Of a stretch of DNA of 41,219 bases, positions 4,576 through 40,622 are shown piece by piece (the first letter of the stretch is position 1; each line of letters opens with the position of its first letter). Below the pieces are notes generated by a model. The model ran no database searches and had not been told where the DNA came from. It saw only the letters and a list, made by a program, of their open reading frames with translations. This DNA comes from a virus. Its lineage: Duplodnaviria > Caudoviricetes. The stretch spans positions 1 to 41,219 of IMG/VR virus record IMGVR_UViG_3300005512_004265. One strand, 5' to 3'. Both the position numbers and the translations under genes were made by a program.

Positions 4576-5100
4576 ATGCAAAACGAAATCGCTCTAAACG
4601 AAACGCCCGTGCATATTCGCTGGATGATTAAACGCGACTTGCCGGAAGTGATCGACATTGAAAACCACGCTTTTGAATTCCCGTGGAGCGAAGACGATTT
4701 CATCGATCGACTTCGTAAACGGAACGTGATCGGGATGGTCGCCGAAAACGACGACGATATTTCGGGGTTCATGGTTTACGAGCTTAAAAAAGAGTCGTTG
4801 TATTTGATTAACTTCGCGGTGCACCCAGACGACCGCCGCGCGGGCGTCGGCCGTCAAATGATTCGAAAGATCATCGGGAAGCTTTCACCAACCCGCCGAA
4901 AAACGGTTTCGCTGGAAGTTCGCGAAACGAATTTCGCGGCGCAAATGTTTTTTCGGGCGAATGGATTCAGGTGCAATGCAACGATTCGCGATCGTTACGA
5001 CGACACAACCGAAGACGCGTATATTTTCGTTTACGACGTGGACGAGCCCGCCGCAACCATCACCACAAAAAACAGAATCAAGGGGCAAATTTTAGAATGA
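4576..5100 (+). CDS. rimI: Ribosomal-protein-alanine N-acetyltransferase (GNAT, RimI family)
   Basis: HIRWMIKRDLPEVIDIE..FEFPWSEDDF, NFAVHPDDRRAGVG (acetyl-CoA motif A), LEVRETNFAAQMFF..NGF, Y.DTTEDAY; GGAG RBS. Confidence 0.88.
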   Translation: MQNEIALNETPVHIRWMIKRDLPEVIDIENHAFEFPWSEDDFIDRLRKRNVIGMVAENDDDISGFMVYELKKESLYLINFAVHPDDRRAGVGRQMIRKIIGKLSPTRRKTVSLEVRETNFAAQMFFRANGFRCNATIRDRYDDTTEDAYIFVYDVDEPAATITTKNRIKGQILE

Positions 5101-9605: not shown

Positions 9606-9947
9606 GCCAATTCGCGCCTATTCGATTTTACGGATTTGGCCGTGAAATCTAATTGTTTTGGTCGCGTTTCGCTTGTGAAAAGAGACTAAAAACCGGCCTA
9701 AATCCCGGTTTTTTTGACCGTTTTTGGGCCGAAAATCACTAAAACGCCCGGTTTTTTGCTTCTGAAATCCGCGATTTGCACTAGAAACACGCTAAAAAAG
9801 GCCCCCTTTTAGGTACTGATCCCCAAAAATCAGGCTTTATCGCGGTCCCTAGGCCCGCGTCAAATTTGCGCGCGGGGTGTTTTGTTGTGATTCACCACCA
9901 CCACCCATAAAATGCGGGTTTGTCACGCGTTTTTTGAGGTTTTGAAA

Positions 9948-11189
9948 ATGTCGTCATTGTTCCGCCGGGAAAACGGAAAGTTCACGATTCAGGTTTCGCA
10001 CAATCGCCGCCGACATTCGATTCGGTTAAACGTTTCCGGGAAGTCCCAAGCGAAAGAGATACAACGCCACGTCGATCGGATTTGTGATTCAATCGCCGCC
10101 GGAGTCTCGGCCGACGTCGCGTCGTTGGCGTGGGTTTCTAGGCAGTCGCCAGAAATGCGAAACCGGCTTGCAAAAATCGGTCTTATTGATCGGCGTCAAC
10201 TTTTGATCACGGTCGGCGATTTGCTTGATTCGTTGAGGGAATCGAATCAGTCACTAGAACAGAAAACCGCTAGAAATTACGAATGGGCGTTTGTTTATCT
10301 TGAACGCTTCTTCGGTCGCGATGGCCGCTTGGCGTCGATCACGCCGGGCGACGCCGACGATTTCGCTAGGTCGCTACGAAGCCAAGATTCAAAGCGGGGC
10401 GATGGTTCCCGGAAGCTTTCGCCGTCAAGCGTTTCGACGTTGCTTTCGTCGGCGAAGATTGTTTTCAACCGGGCGGTTAAAACAGAATCGATTTTTCGAA
10501 ATCCGTTCGCGGATATTAAAACGCCGACGCCTAGGAACGAAAGCAATTTTTTTTTCGTGGATCGTGAGACGTGCGACGCAGTTTTTGAAAATCTCGACTC
10601 AGGTTTTCCGACGGAACACAAATTGACGTTCGCTTTCGCCCGATGGGGCGGCGTTCGAGCTCCAAGCGAAACCCGTTCGCTCGAATGGGACTATGTCGAT
10701 TTTGATAATCAAAAAATTCGCATTTGGGGGCAAAAGACGAAAAAGTTTCGGTCGATCCCGATTTTCCCGGAAATGGTCGATCCGCTCGAAGCTATGCGGG
10801 CGGAAACTTTCGACCGTCAATTTGTGTTCCCGGCGTCGCGTTCGCACTCAAAGTCGTTTTTCTACGAAGCTTTGTCGGCGGCCATAAAAAAGGCCAGGTT
10901 AAAACCTTGGCCGCGATTGGTGCAGAATCTAAGGGCGACGCGTTCGAACGAAATTGAGCGAGAATTCGGGGCAAAAATCGAAGCGGCTTGGATTGGGCAC
11001 GATTCGAAAATCGCCGCCGAAAATTACTTTTCGGTTTCCGACTCTGATTTTGCGAAAGCGGCGAACCCCGTTTCGAAATTGTCGCAAATCATTTCAGATC
11101 GTTCTGTATTGCGATCAGAGCTTTCGTTATTAACCGACGAAGCCCGCGACATTCTTTTGAACGAATTAAAAGAATTTGTTTTTACTTAA
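9948..11189 (+). CDS. int: Tyrosine recombinase (phage integrase)
   Basis: Arm-binding N-terminus, core-binding region ending RNPF, and catalytic motifs RWGGVRAPSE, KTKKFRSIP, QNLRATR, WIGH...NY. Confidence 0.92.
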   Translation: MSSLFRRENGKFTIQVSHNRRRHSIRLNVSGKSQAKEIQRHVDRICDSIAAGVSADVASLAWVSRQSPEMRNRLAKIGLIDRRQLLITVGDLLDSLRESNQSLEQKTARNYEWAFVYLERFFGRDGRLASITPGDADDFARSLRSQDSKRGDGSRKLSPSSVSTLLSSAKIVFNRAVKTESIFRNPFADIKTPTPRNESNFFFVDRETCDAVFENLDSGFPTEHKLTFAFARWGGVRAPSETRSLEWDYVDFDNQKIRIWGQKTKKFRSIPIFPEMVDPLEAMRAETFDRQFVFPASRSHSKSFFYEALSAAIKKARLKPWPRLVQNLRATRSNEIEREFGAKIEAAWIGHDSKIAAENYFSVSDSDFAKAANPVSKLSQIISDRSVLRSELSLLTDEARDILLNELKEFVFT

Positions 11190-14097: not shown

Positions 14098-14579
14098 GCC
14101 CACAAAAAAAGATACTCGAAAAGCTACGGACGGCCCAAGCGTTAATCGATCAGGCATTCGAGGAAATCCGACAACTAGAATTCGCTTCGTCGGAGCCGTC
14201 GCCCGCCGACGATCCACGAACGCCAAACGTTAAACCGATGGTCGCTTTTCGAAAAACCGACCCGGCCGAATATGAAAACGAATTTAATGGCATGATCGGC
14301 CGAATCCGAAGGCGGTTTTCTATGCCGGACGGGTCACCGATTCACATCGACTGGTTTGATTTTGTTCGCGACTTGCAAAACGCGGGCAAGACTCCCGACG
14401 AAGCCCGCCAGCAAATCGCCCCGCGTGTAAAGTCTGAATTGATTCAGCGGCCAGAGTTCACGGCCAAAAATTCAGGTGCGGCCCCGGATCGCGGCCAGCC
14501 ACACGGAACACCCGCGACCCCGCCGCCACCACCACCGAAAAAGATTTCACAAAACCAGCTTTTTAACGCCCGCCGATGA
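14094..14579 (+). CDS. Hypothetical protein, Pro-rich C-terminus
   Basis: ATGA overlaps on both sides. Confidence 0.6.
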   Translation: MSPQKKILEKLRTAQALIDQAFEEIRQLEFASSEPSPADDPRTPNVKPMVAFRKTDPAEYENEFNGMIGRIRRRFSMPDGSPIHIDWFDFVRDLQNAGKTPDEARQQIAPRVKSELIQRPEFTAKNSGAAPDRGQPHGTPATPPPPPPKKISQNQLFNARR

Positions 14580-15340
14580 TCGATCGAAAACCGCCGCTTG
14601 GCGTGGTCGTTGACGCGACCAATCAAATCACGGTGAATTACAAAGCCGGAAAAGGCAACGTCGAGACAGCGACGTTTATTCGCCAATTAGAGGCAATCGA
14701 ACGGACATGCAAACCGCAACACTTGATCGCGGCTTTTGATTCGCCCGATTCGTACCGAAAAACGATTTCGCTAGATTACAAAGCGAACCGCCCGCCGAAA
14801 GAATTGAATTTAGTTAAGTCGTTGAAGCTGGCGAAAGATCGCGCTATGGATGCGGGATGGATCATCGCCGAGATTCAGGGATTCGAAGCCGACGACGTTT
14901 TGGCCAGTTTCGCAAAAACGCTTTCGGATCGCGGCGACCGCGTGTTGCTAGTTTCACGCGATAAAGATTTAAACCAATGCTTACGGGCGGGGCTTGTCAC
15001 GATTTGCAAAAAAGTCACGTCGGCCGACGGCCCGGTCGATTTTTTAACCGCGTCGGATTGCCAAGAAAAATTTGGCGTCGATCCTGATCAATGGATCGGC
15101 TATCAAACGCTAATCGGCGACGCTGGCGATAATATCAAAGGCGTCGACGGGATCGGGCCCAAGACCGCCGCGAAGTTAATTCGCGCCGCGGGCGACGTCG
15201 AAAAAGTTTTTCGAATGCCAGAGATAAGCGGATCGCAAAAATTGACGGCCAGCATCAAGCGTTTTGTTTCGCGATCCGAAACGGTTCGCCAGTTGGTCAC
15301 GCTTCGCGACGATTTGCCGGTCGCTGATTATTTAAGATAA
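14576..15340 (+). CDS. 5'-3' exonuclease/flap endonuclease (Pol I N-terminal/T4 RNase H family)
   Basis: AFDS, YKANR, EADDV, DKDL, GDAGDNIKGVDGIGPKTA (H3TH). Confidence 0.92.
   Translation: MIDRKPPLGVVVDATNQITVNYKAGKGNVETATFIRQLEAIERTCKPQHLIAAFDSPDSYRKTISLDYKANRPPKELNLVKSLKLAKDRAMDAGWIIAEIQGFEADDVLASFAKTLSDRGDRVLLVSRDKDLNQCLRAGLVTICKKVTSADGPVDFLTASDCQEKFGVDPDQWIGYQTLIGDAGDNIKGVDGIGPKTAAKLIRAAGDVEKVFRMPEISGSQKLTASIKRFVSRSETVRQLVTLRDDLPVADYLR
15264..15329. repeat. 66-bp direct repeat, copy 1 (3' end of the exonuclease gene)
   Basis: 65/66 identical to 15990..16055. Confidence 0.95.
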
Positions 15341-15425
15341 CGATCAAGGTAACCGGGTTGCCGGGGAAGACTATGAATACAAAGACCGACGTAGACGGCA
15401 ACTCCGGTTCACCGCCTTGTTATCC
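15335..15425 (-). other. Integron attC site (91 bp, minus strand)
   Basis: Minus strand reads R'' GGATAAC, 5 nt, L'' GGTGAACC, GGAGTTGCCG...loop...CGGCAACC, L' GGTTACC, 6 nt, R' GTTATCT. Two extrahelical bases (15410 and 15403) lie on the R''-L'' arm. Confidence 0.85.
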
Positions 15426-15924
15426 GGCTGTTCTCGATCCGTGTTGCGGTACGCGAATGTTTTGGTTTGACCGAACAGACGAGCGAGCAGTGTACAACGA
15501 CATTCGGAAAGGCGTGCGGGTGATTGATGTTGGCACGCCCGGAACAAAGGGGCGAAAGCCAAAGGTTGTGGCCCCGGATGAAATCGCGGATTTCCGCCAG
15601 ATGGCTTACCCGGATGAGACGTTCTGGCATGTGGTGTTTGACCCGCCACACTTCCACAAGGGAGCAGGAGCGACTGGTCGAATCGCGTTTGACTTCGGTT
15701 TGCTTGCGGATACGTGGCGGGATGATTTGCGGGCCGGGTTTGCGGAGTGTTTCCGCGTATTGAAGCCACACGGGACGTTGATTTTCAAGTGGTGTGAAGC
15801 CGAGATACCGTTGCGGGAAGTGTTGGCGCTGACGGAAGAAAAACCGCTGTACGGGCACCGGAGCGGGAAGAAGGCACAGACGCATTGGGGGTGTTTCATG
15901 AAGTCGCCAGCGGGTGGCGGATAA
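15373..15924 (+). CDS. SAM-dependent DNA methyltransferase (DPPH-type phage family), carried as a gene cassette
   Basis: VLDPCCG.RMFWFD (motif I), VVFDPPH (motif IV variant), GFAECFRVLKPHGTLIFKW, THWGCFMK. Confidence 0.88.
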   Translation: MNTKTDVDGNSGSPPCYPAVLDPCCGTRMFWFDRTDERAVYNDIRKGVRVIDVGTPGTKGRKPKVVAPDEIADFRQMAYPDETFWHVVFDPPHFHKGAGATGRIAFDFGLLADTWRDDLRAGFAECFRVLKPHGTLIFKWCEAEIPLREVLALTEEKPLYGHRSGKKAQTHWGCFMKSPAGGG

Positions 15925-15942
15925 CTTGTTTTTATCCGGTCT
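15919..15942 (-). other. attI-like (also dif-like) recombination site
   Basis: Minus strand AGACCGGATAA-AAACAAG/TTATCC has the same TAA-N7-TT geometry as the attI1 core CCCTAA-AACAAAG/TT. Confidence 0.65.
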
Positions 15943-15989
15943 AGCTAACCGGGCAAGCACTTATTTTTTTAATTACCCGGTTCGGGGCG

Positions 15990-16066
15990 TTGTTTCGCGA
16001 TCCGAAACGGTTCGCCAGTTGGTCACGCTTCGCGACGACTTGCCGGTCGCTGATTTTCTCAGGTGA
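15990..16066 (+). repeat. 66-bp direct repeat, copy 2, with an alternative exonuclease C-terminus (..ADFLR*)
   Basis: Matches 15264..15329, then continues TTT CTC AGG TGA, versus TAT TTA AGA TAA in copy 1. Confidence 0.9.
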
Positions 16067-16078
16067 TCGCCGCCGGTT

Positions 16079-16095
16079 TTTACAGAATCTGTAAA
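16079..16095. promoter_or_regulatory. 17-bp palindrome TTTACAGAATCTGTAAA, copy 1 (before the lysis-like block)
   Basis: Exact copies at 16079, 24195 and 30389; -10-like GATAAT at 16133. Confidence 0.7.
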
Positions 16096-16150
16096 GCTTT
16101 TTTTGCCCGCCGCCCAAGGCCCGCCGCCCCGCGATAATATGAAAACGAAT

Positions 16151-16185
16151 AAAGCCCGCCGACGCGGACACGTCGCCGGGCTTTT
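16151..16185 (+). terminator. Putative intrinsic terminator/attenuator
   Basis: AAAGCCCG-c-CGACG loop CGTCG-c-CGGGCTTTT. Confidence 0.55.
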
Positions 16186-16218
16186 AAAAGTTTTGCCTAT
16201 CACTTTATTCGAAAAACG

Positions 16219-16794
16219 ATGAAAAAACCGGACGCTTTAAAAATGGAATTGGCAAAAATTTTTCTTACTTGGTTGCTGGCATGTATTTCTAAACGGTATG
16301 CCGCCCAGAAACGATCGGAAAGGCTGATTCGAGACAAACACCGGCAATATCAAATTATGAATGATTTAGGCAGGAAAACGCACGCTCTGCGCGTGATTAT
16401 CTTACGAACGGAAAACAACGGGGGAACGTTGCGAACCGATACCCCGTTATTCGTGCGGGCGTTAGACGAGGTGAATTTAGACGACGAAGCCCCGAACCGT
16501 TTCGACACGTGGGGAATTCCACGCCAAATCGACGCGTCTTATGTCGACATGCTTTGGCAGGTTTGCGAATCGCCCGATTTTGCGATCGTAAAAACAAACA
16601 AGCTTAAAAAAGGCGTGCTACGATCCGTTTACGAGGCGGACAAAGTGGCGTTTTCCGCGATCGGAAAGTTAAAACACACGGCCCACCACATCTATTATTT
16701 ATCGATCAACTACGCCGACGGAAACACGCTTGCCGATAGCGAACGAATGTTAATTTTAGATTCAATCGCGTTGTTGAAGGACTTGCTCAAATAA
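16219..16794 (+). CDS. Putative holin-like protein (short N-terminal hydrophobic stretch plus GAF-like domain)
   Basis: KIFLTWLLACIS followed by ALRVIILRTENNGG, reminiscent of T4 gpT-like holins; first gene of the block. Inferred. Confidence 0.4.
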   Translation: MKKPDALKMELAKIFLTWLLACISKRYAAQKRSERLIRDKHRQYQIMNDLGRKTHALRVIILRTENNGGTLRTDTPLFVRALDEVNLDDEAPNRFDTWGIPRQIDASYVDMLWQVCESPDFAIVKTNKLKKGVLRSVYEADKVAFSAIGKLKHTAHHIYYLSINYADGNTLADSERMLILDSIALLKDLLK

Positions 16795-24501: not shown

Positions 24502-26202
24502 TTGTCTCTGTTTAAACGATCACGCGAAAGAAAAAAAATGGCCGATCCAAAATCTTTTTTATCCCAACTCGAAAGCGTCGCCGACCCGGCCGCCGCGATC
24601 GCCAATCCGACGACCCGGCAAAAGCTAACCCGCGTGATCGTTTCAACTCCAACGCAATCGTCTAACGAGGGCGGTTATCGCGTCGGGCGGGTCGATGCGT
24701 CAAATTGGGACCATACGCCGACCGGGATCGGCGAGAATTCAGCGATTACCGCCGGGGGCGATCTTGCCAACCGCCGCCAGCGAGACAATTACAGACAAAT
24801 CGCGTTATCGCGTCGCACGGTTCATTGTCTGCGCGACTTGATCGTCGGAATGGGGCTTCAATGCCTAAACGACCCGATCCATTTTTCATTGACTGAATTA
24901 CTGGAAATGCGAAAGCTTAATCGGTTTGACGATATTTTGTCGTTGATCGATTACGGTCTGGCGTCCGACGAATCATTCGAACGATGGGCCACCGATCCGG
25001 AGTTATGCGACCGGGAGGGGCGGCGAAGCTGGTTTGAAATGCAGCGAACCGCGATAAGCGAAGAGATTCAAGTCGGCGATTGTTTGATTGCCCACGAAAT
25101 CGTTGACCGTGGCCCCGGCGAGTCGCCGCTGCGATTGCAAATGTACGAAAACGAACAGATCGACAAAACAAAAGACCGCCACGAATCGAAGGGTTCTAAA
25201 TACAAAGTCGTGAACGGTTTCGTGCTTGACGATTTGAATCGCGAGATCGGCGTTTATTTGTACCACGAACACCCGCAAGAATCCTACACTTATTCACAAA
25301 ACGGCTACCGTTCGCGATTCGTTCCGGCGTCGCGATATCAACACGTTTTCCAGCCGACCCGACCGACACAATTTTCGGGTTTTTCTTGGACGCATACCCA
25401 CGGCCAGCCGCTTCGTGATCGCGACAATTTTATCGGCACGGAAATCCGGTCGGCCATTAAAGGTGCGATGCAGATCATCGCGGCCTACTTAAAAAACCCA
25501 GAGGAAACAAATTTTAGCTTCGAGGTCGACGATACGGCCGCCGTTCCGCGAACCACGCCCAAGCTTTCTAATTCACCGATGGCTTGGAAACTGGACGCCG
25601 ACGGCGGCGAAAAAGTGGAGATTATCGAAAGCAATCGGCCGAACCCAAACGCGAACGATTTCTACGACATTTTAGACCACGATCTAGCGATGGGCGTCGA
25701 CCTATCCTATCCAACATTGACCGGCCGTTACAACGGTCACACGTACGAAGGGATTCGCGGAGCGTTGCAAGCCGAAGCGTTTCAAATGGCCCCGCTACAA
25801 CGGGCGTTTGGCTTGCAGTTGTGTTTAAAGGTTCGACGACTTCACCAAGATTTAGCCGTCGCAAATCGTCAGATTCCCGGCGTCACGTTGGCCCAGTACA
25901 ACCGCAACAAAAACAAGCTTCGAAAATTCGACGTCGTCGGCCCGGAGCGTGTTTTGCTGAACTTAGAAAAAGAGACAGGCGGAAAGGCCGCATTGCTTCG
26001 CGGTTGTTTGTCGACGTTCAAGGAAGAAGAAATGAGGCTTGGTAAACATTGGTTAAAAACACTTCGCCAGATTTGCATTGAAAACGAGCTTTTCAAATTG
26101 TTGGGGATTGCCCCGGATTGGTCAAAAGGCCAAGGCGGACAAGTTACAACCAACGCCCGCGCAGAAGACAACGCCACCCCGGAAACGGAGCCCGCTGAAT
26201 AG
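24502..26202 (+). CDS. Portal protein (lambda family)
   Basis: R.RD.YR, IVGMG, FERWA....CDREGR.SW, GDCL, LQMYE.EQID, HVFQP.RP.Q..G, LTG.Y. Confidence 0.9.
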   Translation: MSLFKRSRERKKMADPKSFLSQLESVADPAAAIANPTTRQKLTRVIVSTPTQSSNEGGYRVGRVDASNWDHTPTGIGENSAITAGGDLANRRQRDNYRQIALSRRTVHCLRDLIVGMGLQCLNDPIHFSLTELLEMRKLNRFDDILSLIDYGLASDESFERWATDPELCDREGRRSWFEMQRTAISEEIQVGDCLIAHEIVDRGPGESPLRLQMYENEQIDKTKDRHESKGSKYKVVNGFVLDDLNREIGVYLYHEHPQESYTYSQNGYRSRFVPASRYQHVFQPTRPTQFSGFSWTHTHGQPLRDRDNFIGTEIRSAIKGAMQIIAAYLKNPEETNFSFEVDDTAAVPRTTPKLSNSPMAWKLDADGGEKVEIIESNRPNPNANDFYDILDHDLAMGVDLSYPTLTGRYNGHTYEGIRGALQAEAFQMAPLQRAFGLQLCLKVRRLHQDLAVANRQIPGVTLAQYNRNKNKLRKFDVVGPERVLLNLEKETGGKAALLRGCLSTFKEEEMRLGKHWLKTLRQICIENELFKLLGIAPDWSKGQGGQVTTNARAEDNATPETEPAE

Positions 26203-29200
26203 TGTTAGATTTACGAACTAATTTACCCAGCCGCGCGAACGACGTCGCCGATTTAGTGATCGCGAAAGCTTATCGCAATTTAGGCTTTAACCGTTCCGCC
26301 GCCGAAACTTTCGGGGCGTGGTACGTTTCCAAGACGCCAACGGGCAACGTGATCGAAGACGAAACGCCTGGCCGAAAATCTCGCACCGAGTTGGCGACGA
26401 CGGGGAGTGTTTTTGACGGCACGAATTACTTCGAAACCTTGACGGCAGGTTCAGAGGTTTGCGGTACGGATGACACAGCGTTCACGGTTCGCGTGGTTTT
26501 CAGCGGCAACGGATCATCGGCTAATGGCGACTATGTTTGTGCGACCCACGACGACTCACCGAGCGAGGGTTGGCGAATATGGCTGAACAGCGGGTTTATT
26601 AGTTTTTCCCTCCAAGACCTTGCCGGAGTAAACAGATCTGTTTCCTCCACGTTGACAGAAGCCCAGATACAAGCTGGCGGAATCTATGAGGTTGTCGGTG
26701 TTTATGATCCAGACGCGGATACTGTGTCGATTTACGTGAACGGAGAATACCACGAAGAAAACGCGGCCCCGTCGTTTGATGCGGCAACACAGGGACGTTT
26801 CCGGATAGCAACGAAAGCGAATGCAACCACCGGCAAATGGTTCGGCAATGTTTACGAAGCTCAGGTTTGGAACGATCAAGCATTAACAGCCGCCGAGATC
26901 GTTAGACTTTGGGGTAAGGAAATCAGCTACTTCCAAGGTGCGAAAGCCCCGTCGGTTGCGTGGTTGCTAGATGGACCAACGTGTACCGATCTAATCGGCG
27001 ACAACGATCTAACGCCGGTTGCCGATCCAGCGGCATACGTGGGATCATTTGGCAGCACGTGGCTGAACGATCAGGGGTACGGAACAACCGCTTATGAATC
27101 CGATTGGTCGTCCGGTCTTGATGGTTGGACGGTAGTAAATAATTCAACTATCGATGTTGTAGATTTTGAAGGGGAAACAAATGTCTTGAGATTGACCGTT
27201 GGAGATGAGGCATCCGAGCGAATGGAATTAGCTTCTGATTTTCTGACGGATGGCGAAAGTTACACTCTAAAATTCGACATCTATATCCCTAGCAGCAATA
27301 CGACGGTTGATTCAGTTAGATGGACAGCAAGTGCGATTGGGAGCGGAACACTATCGCCGTCTGACGCTTGGACAAGCTATACCCAAACCAACCAAGTCGC
27401 CGATACTGCGAATCCCATGAGACTTTACGCTATCGCAGGTGGTCAAGTTACAGGTTTGACCATCGGCGATGTTTTTTATCTTGCGAATGTCGAAATCATT
27501 GCGGAAGAAAGTGTTTTCCCGAAAAGGTGGAACGCTGATTTAAACTCAAAAGGTTACGCAGGAGACGTCAACTCATTCGGCCCATGCAAGAGGAACAGGG
27601 AATACAGCAACGGACCAGCGATTGACTTAAACGGAGTCGATCAATACGGAGTCAAGCCAAATTCGCACGATTACAGCGGTGAGGATTGGACGTTATCAGG
27701 TTATTGTCTAACCGATGCTGGCGGAACAAGAGATATTCTATCCCAGACAAGCGGAACAGGTCAGGGAAGGACAATTTTTGGGCGTTACGTTACCACAAAC
27801 AAATGGGTAACGAATGTAGGCGGATCTGCTGCTGAATTTTCTAGTATTTCCGATATTGTTTTGGGGCGAGAGTATTTTTTCGAATTAGTACATGATTACT
27901 CAGCTTCGTCTATGACTTTAACGGTGACTGATTTGACCACAAGCGTCACTGAGTCAGAAACTTTAACTTCATTGGTGATGGAATCGGCCAATGGTGACTT
28001 CAATGTTGGGGCGAATAGACTTGCAACGACATTTTGGGATGGCAAAATTTGGGGCCTATCACTCGAATGCACAACCGATCCAACGAAGTCATTCAATTGC
28101 CCGATCAGCGAAGAAGTTGGGATCGTTTCGCACAACACATTGAACCCCGCATCGCCGATTGCGTGGCAAGGCGACCCAACGTGGGACTTCACGGCGAACG
28201 ATGTTTTCTTTCACGGTGAAACGGTTGGCTACAGTTCGGTTCCGATTTTCGTTGACCCAGTTGAGCTTATCGCCAACGGTAACATCAATATGGACGGCAT
28301 TAAAACAGCCAGCATCGAAATTGATTTCTTAACTCGGAGTAAAACAAATACGTTCTATTGCCAAGGCTCAGTATCACCGTTCCGACTTAGTTTTACGACC
28401 GCCGGTTTCACGTTCAGCTACCGTGACGACACCAACGCAGTAGTTTCTTCAACAATCCCAATGACTTACGAAACGGGTGTTGTGTATCGCTTGAAATTCG
28501 ATTTGGTTGAGCACGATACGAATCCGACAACAGAAAGTTACGCAACTGTTTCGGATCGCATAACTGGTGAAGTTTATGGGACAGTGACGGGGTTGAATTT
28601 TGCTGCTAGTACAGCGTCGTCCAATAGTGGGCCTGCACAAATAGGCTCATACGCAAATGCGACCTCGTCTGTTGATGCAGATATTTATAGGGTTCGGTCT
28701 GTGATCGGTGGAGTTAAAGAACTACTTTGGACTTCTGACAATTACTTAGTCAATCAGGCTAATGATTCGGCAATGAACGAGTCAGGCGGCACGCTTTCAG
28801 TCAAAAAGATTCCAGCCGTATCGAAAGCCCTTGACGCAAACGGGTATCCAACAACCAATCCCGCAGGCCCTTATCACAACCGCACCGCAGCGGAGGTAAC
28901 GGAAACGCCGGTTGCGAATAGCGATAGCGTGAACCCGATTTATTTTGCGGCGGAATTCGATGGGACAACGGCCCGCGAAAATCTAGGTAATCAAAAACTC
29001 GTAGATGGGTTTGATTTAGAATTCTCGTTTTACATGTCGTCCGGTGGTTCAGAACCAGTTATCGATTCCACGAACAATAACAGTGCCACTAACCCCGGTC
29101 TGGGCATAACAAAAGACAGTTCAGAAAATATATCGTTCGTGGTGCGTGGTGCTTCTGGTGCGATTAGCTACGATACTACATCGGCAATCTACAATTCACG

Positions 29201-29585
29201 GTGGACAAAAATACGAGTTAATCGATCAGGGGATACGATATCGTTTTTCATCGATGATGTTTTGGTTCAGTCCGGTTCAGTTAGCACAATTGGGTATGCC
29301 GCGACTGAATCAACCAACATGTTCTTGATGGGGCATATCTTTAGCAGTTACTCACCGGGGTACGTGAAGAATCTCAAGCTATCGACTGGCAGTACGGTTC
29401 TGATTGATCGACCGTATTACAAAGACAATCTTGACCGATCTTTGAATACAGACCACGGAGACGGAACTGGCATCACGTTCCTATCAAACGCGATGGAAAC
29501 CGATTTGAACCCAGAGTTCGCCGAAACCGAAACACGAGCCGTTACCAGCGGCGACCGCAAAATCATATCACTAGGAGCACGATAG
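26202..29585 (+). CDS. Large virion adhesin-like protein with multiple LamG/ConA-like jelly-roll and CBM-like domains
   Basis: VVGVYD...SIYVNG...FRIA...WFGNVYEAQVWNDQALTAAEI and two to three similar repeats; YESDWSSGLDGW CBM-like segment. Confidence 0.8.
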   Translation: MLDLRTNLPSRANDVADLVIAKAYRNLGFNRSAAETFGAWYVSKTPTGNVIEDETPGRKSRTELATTGSVFDGTNYFETLTAGSEVCGTDDTAFTVRVVFSGNGSSANGDYVCATHDDSPSEGWRIWLNSGFISFSLQDLAGVNRSVSSTLTEAQIQAGGIYEVVGVYDPDADTVSIYVNGEYHEENAAPSFDAATQGRFRIATKANATTGKWFGNVYEAQVWNDQALTAAEIVRLWGKEISYFQGAKAPSVAWLLDGPTCTDLIGDNDLTPVADPAAYVGSFGSTWLNDQGYGTTAYESDWSSGLDGWTVVNNSTIDVVDFEGETNVLRLTVGDEASERMELASDFLTDGESYTLKFDIYIPSSNTTVDSVRWTASAIGSGTLSPSDAWTSYTQTNQVADTANPMRLYAIAGGQVTGLTIGDVFYLANVEIIAEESVFPKRWNADLNSKGYAGDVNSFGPCKRNREYSNGPAIDLNGVDQYGVKPNSHDYSGEDWTLSGYCLTDAGGTRDILSQTSGTGQGRTIFGRYVTTNKWVTNVGGSAAEFSSISDIVLGREYFFELVHDYSASSMTLTVTDLTTSVTESETLTSLVMESANGDFNVGANRLATTFWDGKIWGLSLECTTDPTKSFNCPISEEVGIVSHNTLNPASPIAWQGDPTWDFTANDVFFHGETVGYSSVPIFVDPVELIANGNINMDGIKTASIEIDFLTRSKTNTFYCQGSVSPFRLSFTTAGFTFSYRDDTNAVVSSTIPMTYETGVVYRLKFDLVEHDTNPTTESYATVSDRITGEVYGTVTGLNFAASTASSNSGPAQIGSYANATSSVDADIYRVRSVIGGVKELLWTSDNYLVNQANDSAMNESGGTLSVKKIPAVSKALDANGYPTTNPAGPYHNRTAAEVTETPVANSDSVNPIYFAAEFDGTTARENLGNQKLVDGFDLEFSFYMSSGGSEPVIDSTNNNSATNPGLGITKDSSENISFVVRGASGAISYDTTSAIYNSRWTKIRVNRSGDTISFFIDDVLVQSGSVSTIGYAATESTNMFLMGHIFSSYSPGYVKNLKLSTGSTVLIDRPYYKDNLDRSLNTDHGDGTGITFLSNAMETDLNPEFAETETRAVTSGDRKIISLGAR

Positions 29586-35031: not shown

Positions 35032-35709
35032 ATGAAAATCACGGAAGAAATCAAGCAAGCCGCGTTTAATTGTTTAACCGTTTACAAAAACGCGTCGGCG
35101 TTCGTACCCGTCTTGGAACATTACAACGAAGAATGGATTCAGTCGATCGACACTTTAAAAGACGGAAAACAGATCCGCCGGATTACGATTCGCGGTTCCG
35201 ACGACCCGGTCGACTGGCTTCGTAACTTGGATTTGAAACAACGGCCGGTCGTGCCCGGTTTCAACGCGTCGCGGGGCGTGATCAAGTCGGCCCGCACGTT
35301 ATTAACCGGATTGATCAAGCACGACTTCGACTTCAACGACGCCCGCCCGATCCAAATCGAGGGGCATTCAAAAGGCGGGGCCGTCGCTCAGGTGTTGGCC
35401 GTTTGGCTTCACGATCGCGGTTGCAAGATCGACGACGTGATCACGTTTGGCTGCCCCCGGATCACCCGCCAAGCGTTTGAATATCCGTTTCCCGTCACGC
35501 AAATATCCGTCGCAGGTGATCCGGTTCCATTCGTTCCGTGCTGGCGACCGTGGCGGCCGTTCCAGTGGACGTGGCGACACAATGGCGACACGCAAAAACT
35601 AGGTCGTCGGACGATGGCGACCGAGTCGAAAGAATTCTTTTTGATTAAACGAATGATTTCTTCGCATTTAATGGCCAATTATTGTTCCGTGTTGGGGGTC
35701 AAGTGTTAG
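35032..35709 (+). CDS. Class 3 lipase (alpha/beta hydrolase)
   Basis: IRGSD..DWL.NL, GHSKGG (nucleophile elbow), TFGCPR, GDPVP (Asp), SHLMANY (His). Confidence 0.88.
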   Translation: MKITEEIKQAAFNCLTVYKNASAFVPVLEHYNEEWIQSIDTLKDGKQIRRITIRGSDDPVDWLRNLDLKQRPVVPGFNASRGVIKSARTLLTGLIKHDFDFNDARPIQIEGHSKGGAVAQVLAVWLHDRGCKIDDVITFGCPRITRQAFEYPFPVTQISVAGDPVPFVPCWRPWRPFQWTWRHNGDTQKLGRRTMATESKEFFLIKRMISSHLMANYCSVLGVKC

Positions 35710-38938: not shown

Positions 38939-40429
38939 ATGGCCACGCAAAAACAAAAATTCATAACGGACGGTTCGCAGGTTAATCGCGAAATGGACAA
39001 GATGCGAAAAGCACTTGTCAAACAACGCGAAGAAATGAAAAAGATCACGCAAGCCAGCCGGGCGATGGCGACCGAAGCGAAAAAATCAAATCAGACCATG
39101 CGTCGCGGGTTTTCAAATATCGCCAGTGGGGCCGAATCGGCGATCAAAAGTTATGTCGGAATGCAGACCGCAATTTCGGCGGTGAATTCCGTTTTGGCGG
39201 ATCAAAAACGATTGCAAGGCGAAGCACTCAGTGTTTCGACAACGGTTGCTAGATCACAAGCGTCGATCGTAAAAAATATCGGGCAAGTTTCGAAAAAGGA
39301 ATTAAGTTCGTTTTTGGATCAGGTCGAGAAGATCAACACCGAAACAAAGTTCGGCGATCAAGGGCAATTGAATCTAGCGGCGTCGTCGTTGTTATCCGGG
39401 ACCGGCGGCAACCAAAACCAGACGATCGACATTTTGCGAGAAGCGGCCCCGTTTTTTCGCGACGCCCCGGCCCAACTCGCGAGTTTTTCGGGAGCCGTCG
39501 CCGACGTACAAAAAGCGACCGGCGGATCGGCAAAAGAAACGCTTGGTTTGGTTTTGGGTATTCAAGGGCAAGCCCGAATCGACCGCTTGGACGCGTTAAA
39601 AAACTTGGCCCCGGCGGTCGCTCAGTCGCGAGTTTATACGGAAGGAGCGAACCGGGCCGAAGAAACCCGCCAAGCCGGGGCACTGTTCGCGGCGATCGGA
39701 GCCCAAACGGGCGACGTCGAAGGGGCGTCGACGTCAACGGCCGTGATCGCGTTGCAAAAGAAATTAGAAGAAACGTTTCCGTCGCTTGATGGTTTCCAAG
39801 ACAAATTGAAAGCGATCCGCGAAGCGGACGTTACGACACGCGAAGAATTTTTGAAAGCAGGATTCGAGGCGAAAGCGGCGGGCGTGATCCGCGAGTTAAT
39901 CACCGACACCAATTCGCAAACGTCCAAAAACCTTGACGACGCATTGAGCAAGATCACGTCGTCGCCGAAGCGGGTCGACGAAATGCGTTCGCTATTGATC
40001 GGCGGCACAAAAGAATTAGAACTTCAGGGAATCCAGAAAAGCGGCAAGACCGCAAAAGAACAATATTTAGAATCAACCGGGATGGCCCCACTTGCCGAAG
40101 CCAGAAACCAAGCGGTCGAGGCGTTGGCCGCAACACGGGCCCGCAACTTGGCTTCGTCGTCGCTTAACTTTATGGCCGAATCGGTCGAGATGAACGCGTT
40201 ATCAGGATCGACGCCCGTTTCGCAAATCGACACGTTCATTGATCAATTGACCACGCGACAACAGCAAGTGCAAAACCGTTTTTCGATTAACCCATTCGGA
40301 AGCGGGATCGATGAAAATGATCGACGCGAACAATTAAAACTTTTGCGATCGACGGTCGAAGAATTAAAAAAGCTTCGTTCGCAAGCGGCCGCCGCGACCG
40401 GGAACCGGAACCAAGAAGAAACACAATAA
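38939..40429 (+). CDS. Tape measure protein (allele B 3' end), ~496 aa
   Basis: Long A/Q/S-rich helical protein after the frameshifting chaperone. Confidence 0.8.
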   Translation: MATQKQKFITDGSQVNREMDKMRKALVKQREEMKKITQASRAMATEAKKSNQTMRRGFSNIASGAESAIKSYVGMQTAISAVNSVLADQKRLQGEALSVSTTVARSQASIVKNIGQVSKKELSSFLDQVEKINTETKFGDQGQLNLAASSLLSGTGGNQNQTIDILREAAPFFRDAPAQLASFSGAVADVQKATGGSAKETLGLVLGIQGQARIDRLDALKNLAPAVAQSRVYTEGANRAEETRQAGALFAAIGAQTGDVEGASTSTAVIALQKKLEETFPSLDGFQDKLKAIREADVTTREEFLKAGFEAKAAGVIRELITDTNSQTSKNLDDALSKITSSPKRVDEMRSLLIGGTKELELQGIQKSGKTAKEQYLESTGMAPLAEARNQAVEALAATRARNLASSSLNFMAESVEMNALSGSTPVSQIDTFIDQLTTRQQQVQNRFSINPFGSGIDENDRREQLKLLRSTVEELKKLRSQAAAATGNRNQEETQ

Positions 40430-40622
40430 GACCGGCCGCAGGTAAAGAGAAATCACCCACAGGCTAGAAGCCTATGCCACGCGACCGCTGGTTTTTCAGT
40501 CACAGGCTAGAAGCCTATGCCACACCCCAGAAACGGCCGAAAATTTGAACGCCAGCCCCTAGGGTAACGTGTGCAAATGTTGCGTTTTATTAGGTCGCTT
40601 TGCCAATAAAAAGAGAAAAGCC
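39937..40622. repeat. Imperfect terminal direct repeat, copy B
   Basis: Pairs with 1..~690. Confidence 0.92.
40458..40523 (-). repeat. REP doublet, copy B
   Basis: All 66 nt identical to 522..587. Confidence 0.75.

Follow-up and report, generated by a model that had tools for sequence, protein, structure and literature searches.

A bottom-strand attC site ahead of a phage methyltransferase gene probably holds the gene's translation start in its loop

Integron cassettes are taught as promoterless genes, each followed by an attC site and read from Pc. In canonical cassettes the stop codon often overlaps the core box (PMC11511950), and attC is cleaved where C follows A within the triplet AAC (PMC7439510). 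Stop codons that are completed at the crossover and attC hairpins that affect downstream translation have been reviewed (PMC8876359). Phages carry attC sites as well, and the bottom strands of such sites were recombined by IntI1 (PMC9892861). Here, we describe a phage cassette that is mounted backwards, so that the one usable start of the gene, and likely the ribosome-binding site too, lie within the folded attC ahead of it.

The window, i.e., the whole stretch of 41,219 nucleotides that was analysed, stems from a phage with terminase, portal, protease and tyrosine integrase genes (Pfam scan of its 29 long open reading frames only). The attC and the methyltransferase gene form the end of a replication-type operon, directly 3′ of a 5′-3′ exonuclease gene, and the methyltransferase gene is co-oriented with this operon. 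No sigma-70-like promoter was found as a Pc candidate within positions 14400–16400, and Rfam gave no match at gathering score in the window. The features of the locus are listed in order of position.

14576–15340, + strand: 5′-3′ exonuclease gene (Pfam 5_3_exonuc_N and 5_3_exonuc); its native stop TAA at 15338–15340 is the upstream half of the attC R′ box.
15264–15336, + strand: first copy of a direct repeat of 73 nt, lying at the 3′ end of the exonuclease gene.
15335–15425, + strand: attC, bottom strand, with R′ 15335–15341, L′ 15348–15354, L″ 15406–15413 and R″ 15419–15425; aligns with Planctomycete chromosomal attC.
15341–15924, + strand: putative mobile unit of 584 nt that comprises attC and gene between the two crossovers.
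15363–15369, + strand: Shine-Dalgarno (SD)-like element GGGGAAG, unpaired except for its first base.
15373–15924, + strand: phage orphan SAM-dependent, probably DNA, methyltransferase of 183 aa (PHROG 954, E 7e-59; Rossmann fold).
15919–15938, + strand: attI-like simple site, a core with the methyltransferase stop, crossover at A15924|C15925, 6-nt spacer and TTATC-type L box.
15939–15994, no strand assigned: imperfect inverted repeat that either is accessory to the attI-like site or represents an attC in decay.
15990–16062, + strand: copy 2 of the 73-nt direct repeat, an alternative exonuclease 3′ end (DFLR, then TGA) that closes the inserted block.

Elsewhere, the window encodes a GNAT acetyltransferase (4576–5100), a large laminin-G protein (26202–29585) and a class 3 lipase (35032–35709). 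Positions 1–661 recur at 39937–40596 as a terminal-type repeat of only 92% identity, which is unusual for a simple circular overlap; two related phages may have been joined here, or it may be a diverged duplication. Both copies of this long repeat contain two 28-nt direct repeats, 43 nt apart (517–587 and 40453–40523).

The attC spacers measure 6 nt between R′ and L′ and 5 nt between L″ and R″. The R′ box is AGATAAC, R′ and R″ carry AAC and GTT, respectively, and the crossover falls at A15340|C15341. The loop spans 32 nt (15364–15395). The 3′ arm of the + strand carries two extrahelical bases, T15403 and C15410, at a spacing of 6 bp; the + strand is therefore the attC bottom strand, and the methyltransferase gene is hence reversed with respect to normal cassettes. 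The first extrahelical base is a C in place of the typical G (PMC7439510), as in 63 of 137 related sites and in most aligned host sites. As RNA, the hairpin has a stability of −33 kcal/mol and folds better than chance (z = −3.8).

This attC was the top match of the attC detector in the window (score 18), where 12 Markov-shuffled strands gave a single match, of score 12. The first version of the detector missed clear sites such as that of locus L009, and a relaxed version was used. The latter found 13 matches in 445 kb and, at score 12, 115 matches in 515 kb, compared with one null match in either case. With both versions a single intact attC was found in the window. The locus is therefore not a CALIN, which has at least two attC sites and no intI, as related phage loci with several attC are. 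It is not a canonical cassette either, since the open reading frame lies on the bottom strand and attC stands before it instead of after it, and no intI that would make a complete integron was found among the 29 long open reading frames scanned. The core at the gene end, GGATAAC (15919–15925), is complementary to R″ at 7/7 positions, and the unit 15341–15924 was thus defined as attC plus gene. This complementarity is the same in 15 of the 17 attC-linked methyltransferases described below. The 584-nt cassette is probably mobilized by a host IntI.

The ATG at 15373–15375 starts at position 10 of the loop. Only the first G of GGGGAAG is paired, at the end of the stem; the remaining bases lie in the loop, where folding predicts an unpaired probability of 0.8–1.0 (15364–15369). 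The SD/anti-SD duplex of −5.7 kcal/mol lies in the range covered by the best among 18 other phage genes. Residues 1–17 (MNTKTDVDGNSGSPPCY) are encoded by the attC loop and the 3′ arm, up to the end of the R″ box at 15425. All coordinates of the initial annotation were found to be correct, i.e., it had rightly placed ATG and SD-like element in or at the edge of the terminal loop and assigned about 17 N-terminal residues to the attC loop and arm. A true start downstream of 15425 would have contradicted it, but no ATG, GTG or TTG occurs in frame between 15373 and 15454, and 15454 is already past the DPCCG motif. We rejected a start at 15454 because the SAM motif and the first strand would be lost, and disfavoured the TTG at 15358 (SD duplex −4.0), which is fully paired in the stem. 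Upstream of the SAM-binding motif, no in-frame start other than the ATG at 15373 is unpaired, and this ATG is presumably the start in use. In a structure model, residues 1–9 have pLDDT values below 50 and the first strand is formed by residues 20–23; the 17 attC-encoded residues are likely a tolerated tag.

The methyltransferase frame is intact and the invariant residues of the family are kept. Profile match and Rossmann SAM-binding fold identify the enzyme class, and DNA as the substrate is taken from annotation. Compared with the exonuclease gene and the genome, the words GATC, TCGA and CGCG are scarce in the gene (15373–15924) and CCGG is abundant, a composition consistent with foreign origin.

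To follow the N-terminal extension in other methyltransferases, 253 sequences (252 loci and the window) were searched with tblastn, of which 247 matched. We kept 161 loci that had the motif, 170 nt of upstream sequence and less than 90% identity; 157 of them had a start call. A full attC lay directly upstream in 17 loci, with the bottom strand coding in all 17. Extensions of at least 14 residues were present in 13 of these 17 attC-linked copies compared with 25 of 140 other methyltransferases (p = 2e-6). The extension is hence strongly enriched in attC-linked copies but not confined to them, given the 25 extended copies without full attC. Among the latter, 11 of 25 keep the 3′-arm motif, compared with 9 of 115 short ones; the extension can outlive the hairpin, and therefore some extended copies lack a full attC. 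In L001 and L002, for example, the enzyme is 93% identical, but of attC just the coding 3′ arm is left, and SD and ATG are different.

Moreover, the extension was not tied to the enzyme body. L152 shares only 58% body identity with the window, yet 16 of 17 N-terminal residues are identical and the attC is nearly the same, whereas L002, with 96% body identity, is identical in 7 of 17. Sequence comparison thus supports an attC-derived N-terminal extension that tracks attC and not the enzyme body. Among the best 120 of 4951 homologues, many N-termini were unrelated or there was almost none. In a FastTree phylogeny, which cannot separate gain from loss, the 17 attC-linked copies were unclustered (17 changes versus a shuffled mean of 16.4). 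An exact 18-nt arm pattern had no matches in viral contigs. L152 (1523–4300) is an array of several reversed cassettes, and its methyltransferase has the attC-encoded N-terminus and also the C-terminal tail in common with that of the window, around the 58% identical body. This pattern suggests body swaps within a cassette.

For a wider comparison we used 137 non-redundant attC sites in 68 loci, taken from the methyltransferase loci and from 73 pattern loci in viral contigs. The methyltransferase loci comprise viral and metagenome contigs, not all of them proven phage, and 52 loci (L094–L145), mostly chance matches, were excluded from all counts. The downstream frame, read from 45 nt beyond the site, was clear at 106 of the 137 sites. 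With gene frames from custom scripts and sites that are not phylogenetically independent, 58 of 95 ATGs at these 106 sites were in frame with the next gene, and so were 35 of the 42 ATGs preceded by an SD. Leaving out the methyltransferase sites, this was found for 46 of 77 ATGs and 28 of 34 SD-preceded ATGs, so that unrelated phage genes have similar attC-derived starts. Collapsing the non-methyltransferase sites at 75% identity left 27 of 51 ATGs and 15 of 20 SD-preceded ATGs in frame (p = 2e-4). A start was called inside attC at 48 of 106 sites, 43 with an open in-frame ATG, located in the loop at 37 of them, and five with GTG or TTG and an SD. The other 58 had no called start inside attC, i.e., 33 begin after the site and 25 are open without a start; the layout is therefore common but not the rule.

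Polarity was scored by amino-acid coding, because orientation by long-ORF cover was noisy (54 vs 31; 77 vs 55 with five ties). By this score, 129 of 134 phage-side attC sites were reversed compared with 31 of 33 host sites in canonical orientation. The viral contigs L381 and L386 each have seven to eight reversed attC cassettes per approximately 4 kb. On the Thermoguttaceae contig L313 (about 1400–1520), an attC close in sequence to the canonical sites of L307 and L314 has a strong bottom-strand SD and an ATG in frame with a 96-codon open reading frame; this is possibly a prophage cassette.

Host chromosomal sites served as control. The same attC family was found in 40 of 201 genomes of the class of genome G005, taken as Planctomycetia, and 58 of the 201 had IntI above cut-off. 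In 17 host sites the ATGs were distributed 5/3/7 over the three frames, i.e., without frame bias. Considering sites of 78–86 nt, any ATG was about equally common in host and phage (13 of 27 vs 38 of 63), whereas none of the 27 host sites but 22 of the 63 phage sites had an ATG with an SD of four or more. Where the window has its ATG, 10 of 26 host sites had TTG, three ATG, two CTG and one GTG, preceded by an A/G-rich stretch like that of the window. The purine fraction of the loop on this strand was 0.54 in host and 0.61 in phage sites. Judged from these alignments, the start signal was most likely exapted from a host loop that mostly had TTG and no strong SD, and was then sharpened. The reverse direction, with the phage start signal first, might also apply.

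The stops of the exonuclease (15338–15340) and the methyltransferase (15922–15924) are, as described initially, the TAA inside AGATAAC and GGATAAC. The same description had the stops built into the recombination site, which we could not uphold. The crossover AA|C lies downstream of TAA, and TAA consequently belongs to the upstream DNA and not to the incoming attC. Moreover, of the 105 upstream genes just 30 end at the box TAA; another 31 continue through it, AAC then being an Asn codon, none reaches it in the third frame and 44 stop earlier. A T before AAC was equally common in host R′ boxes (23 of 35) and phage R′ boxes (82 of 137). Exonuclease homologues of 76% and 53% identity have the same final residue; the exonuclease thus ends where its homologues end, and its native stop was used as the target. 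When a cassette inserts at TAA|C, the TAA before the crossover is kept and the upstream stop stays intact. Fifteen methyltransferase cassettes have a 7/7 core; four of them stop at the box, and the other 11 continue into tails set by the neighbour. Of the proposed self-contained, stackable translation unit, the start in attC and the intact upstream stop hence stand, but stops that come with the incoming site do not. Stacking without damage is true for this cassette, which represents one of two classes.

The second core box has its TAA where the initial annotation put it, but we read it as attI-like and not as a second intact attC. The same layout was found after the last cassette of L325, L326, L338, L379, L380 and L391 and at the host attI adjoining intI in L432; L326 and this host attI also have an accessory motif in common. 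By itself, the motif occurs three times in the window with 1.55 expected, and the host core was comparable at only 4 of 31 intI loci. The sequence 15919–15938 is a putative attI-like site rather than an intact attC, and a new cassette inserted there would land downstream of the methyltransferase stop. The inverted repeat at 15939–15994 folds weakly (z −0.8 and −1.7) and gave no detector match, and a similar palindrome is found upstream of the core in the host attI region of L428/L436. We rejected 15939–15997 as a second working attC, since its R′ position is not AAC and both detectors missed it. The 73-nt repeat flanks the whole block of attC, gene and attI-like site, and the changes in copy 2 are mostly synonymous, like those of a second allele. 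This suggests that the block may have arrived by recombination between related phages. No relative with an empty site was found; a second search gave only exonucleases of 24–37% identity, 1 of 80 with attC in the flank.

We consider it quite probable that the hairpin is a bottom-strand attC of the Planctomycete family with the methyltransferase start in its loop, serving as recombination substrate and as translation start. A host integron integrase would insert the cassette at the AA|C crossover. As attC precedes the gene in the phage transcript, SD, ATG and the first 17 codons would travel with the cassette, and as the TAA before the crossover stays upstream, a gene ending in TAA-C would be left whole. 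Phage copies with an ATG and a stronger SD in frame would have been retained from host-type loops. By prediction, the hairpin lowers initiation as long as neither a ribosome upstream nor transcription in progress holds it open. Alternatively, the hairpin might have been retained for control at the mRNA level, tying translation of the methyltransferase to termination of the exonuclease, with recombination secondary, which we regard as unlikely. Its high stability as RNA and the reviewed effects of attC hairpins on translation (PMC8876359) are in line with such a control, and so are folding calculations. Opening from the SD to ATG+12 costs 4.6 kcal/mol, and opening from −15 to +15 costs 15.5 kcal/mol, compared with 2.7–12.6 kcal/mol for 18 other phage genes. 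With an upstream terminating ribosome covering 9, 12 or 15 nt the cost drops to 12.9, 12.1 and 6.9 kcal/mol, respectively, i.e., relief is small if only 9–12 nt are covered, and before the 3′ arm is made it is 8.6 kcal/mol. In addition, six read-through cases with a called upstream gene have the upstream stop within −5 to +6 nt of the loop ATG. Here, however, stop and start are 32 nt apart, the same hairpin family is antisense in host arrays, and L001, L002 and the 11 long-extension copies that keep only the coding arm show that the hairpin can be lost. Some coupling or tuning by the hairpin is plausible from these models. The six loci (L159:527, L253:5851, L005:427, L181:2145, L372:6187 and L003:457), where the stop overlaps or nearly overlaps the next ATG in attC, are candidates for translational coupling. 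Published class 1 data on attC and expression cut both ways (PMC8876359, PMC11511950): attC deletion changed downstream expression in a minority of cases (PMC11511950).

That ATG and SD in the loop are accidental, and the cassette neutral or dead with a gene that is silent or starts elsewhere, seems very improbable to us. Loops are purine-rich in host and phage sites alike, ATGs are frequent in host sites, and the TTG at 15358 with its SD duplex is in frame. Yet the strong frame bias is confined to phage sites, this TTG is paired within the stem, the start at 15454 would remove first strand and SAM motif, and frame and invariant residues have been maintained. We likewise give hardly any weight to a recombination of the site by the phage's own tyrosine integrase (9912–11189), with the site not being an integron substrate. 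The phage does encode this enzyme, and no IntI was found among the 29 long open reading frames of the Pfam scan. However, the protein had no match to the integron-integrase model at E 0.01, and the site matches the host chromosomal attC family, which adjoins intI in genome G118.

An attC layout with the start in the loop recurs in many phage cassettes and, with the attC site read as a translation start as we favour, would let a gene arrive ready for translation. Phages could thereby obtain ready-to-express accessory genes, e.g., methyltransferases that may shield against restriction. Reversed sites doubling as translation starts would account for the odd and variable N- and C-terminal tails of many phage proteins. 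The host comparison outlines how a recombination site could acquire a further function, namely by a change of TTG to ATG together with a strengthened SD in the loop. The finding bears on the open question of cassette origin. As a bolder and so far doubtful proposal, phages might run a mirror-image cassette system on host integron machinery, with attC loops as portable translation starts. Genes would have been trimmed to their core many times over, receiving start and N-terminus from attC and the end from the crossover, as TAA (30 of 61) or an in-frame Asn codon (31 of 61) but never in the third frame (0 of 61), and the hairpin would make translation of each cassette depend on its upstream neighbour. 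If true, the system would show in nature how cassettes come about.

In the literature searched, with supplements and most subscription papers outside its scope, we found no account of reversed phage cassettes with starts in attC, and the parts consulted of PMC5737381, PMC8618304 and 10.64898/2026.03.17.712381 hold none. The main text of Qi et al. does not mention "start codon", "ribosome" or "opposite", and the parts consulted do not describe reversed polarity or starts in attC (PMC9892861). The phage CALINs of that study resemble our locus in their attC-bounded cassettes, the lack of intI and methyltransferase cargo including Methyltransf_11, but they have two or more attC sites, whereas one intact attC and an attI-like site are found here (Qi et al. 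2023, PMC9892861). With the canonical cassettes of Planctomycete chromosomal arrays, the locus shares attC family, box geometry and core complementarity. In those arrays, however, a top-strand gene is followed by an attC overlapping its stop, whereas in the present locus attC lies ahead of the gene and contains the start and N-terminus of the latter. Recombination sites are also reviewed as suppliers of translation signals in ORF-11, ORF-17 and ORF-18 of attI1 and in short attC open reading frames; these are top-strand leader ORFs, in contrast to the cargo's own SD and start in a bottom-strand loop (PMC8876359). Insertion of attC cassettes by IntI at secondary attG sites occurs at GWT in either orientation, which TAA-C fits as GTTA on the other strand (10.1101/2022.09.11.507474). 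The passages on attG report no stop-codon preference, whereas selection for upstream genes that stay intact would account for such a preference here. Synthetic attC sites that code for protein show that a peptide can be encoded without loss of recombination; these are engineered linkers, in contrast to the natural sites with their SD, start codon and N-terminus (Nivina et al. 2020, PMC7439510). Phage attC with methyltransferase cargo has thus been published (PMC9892861), and compared with the sources at hand the reversed layout with its start in attC is a real and recurrent variant of integron cassettes.
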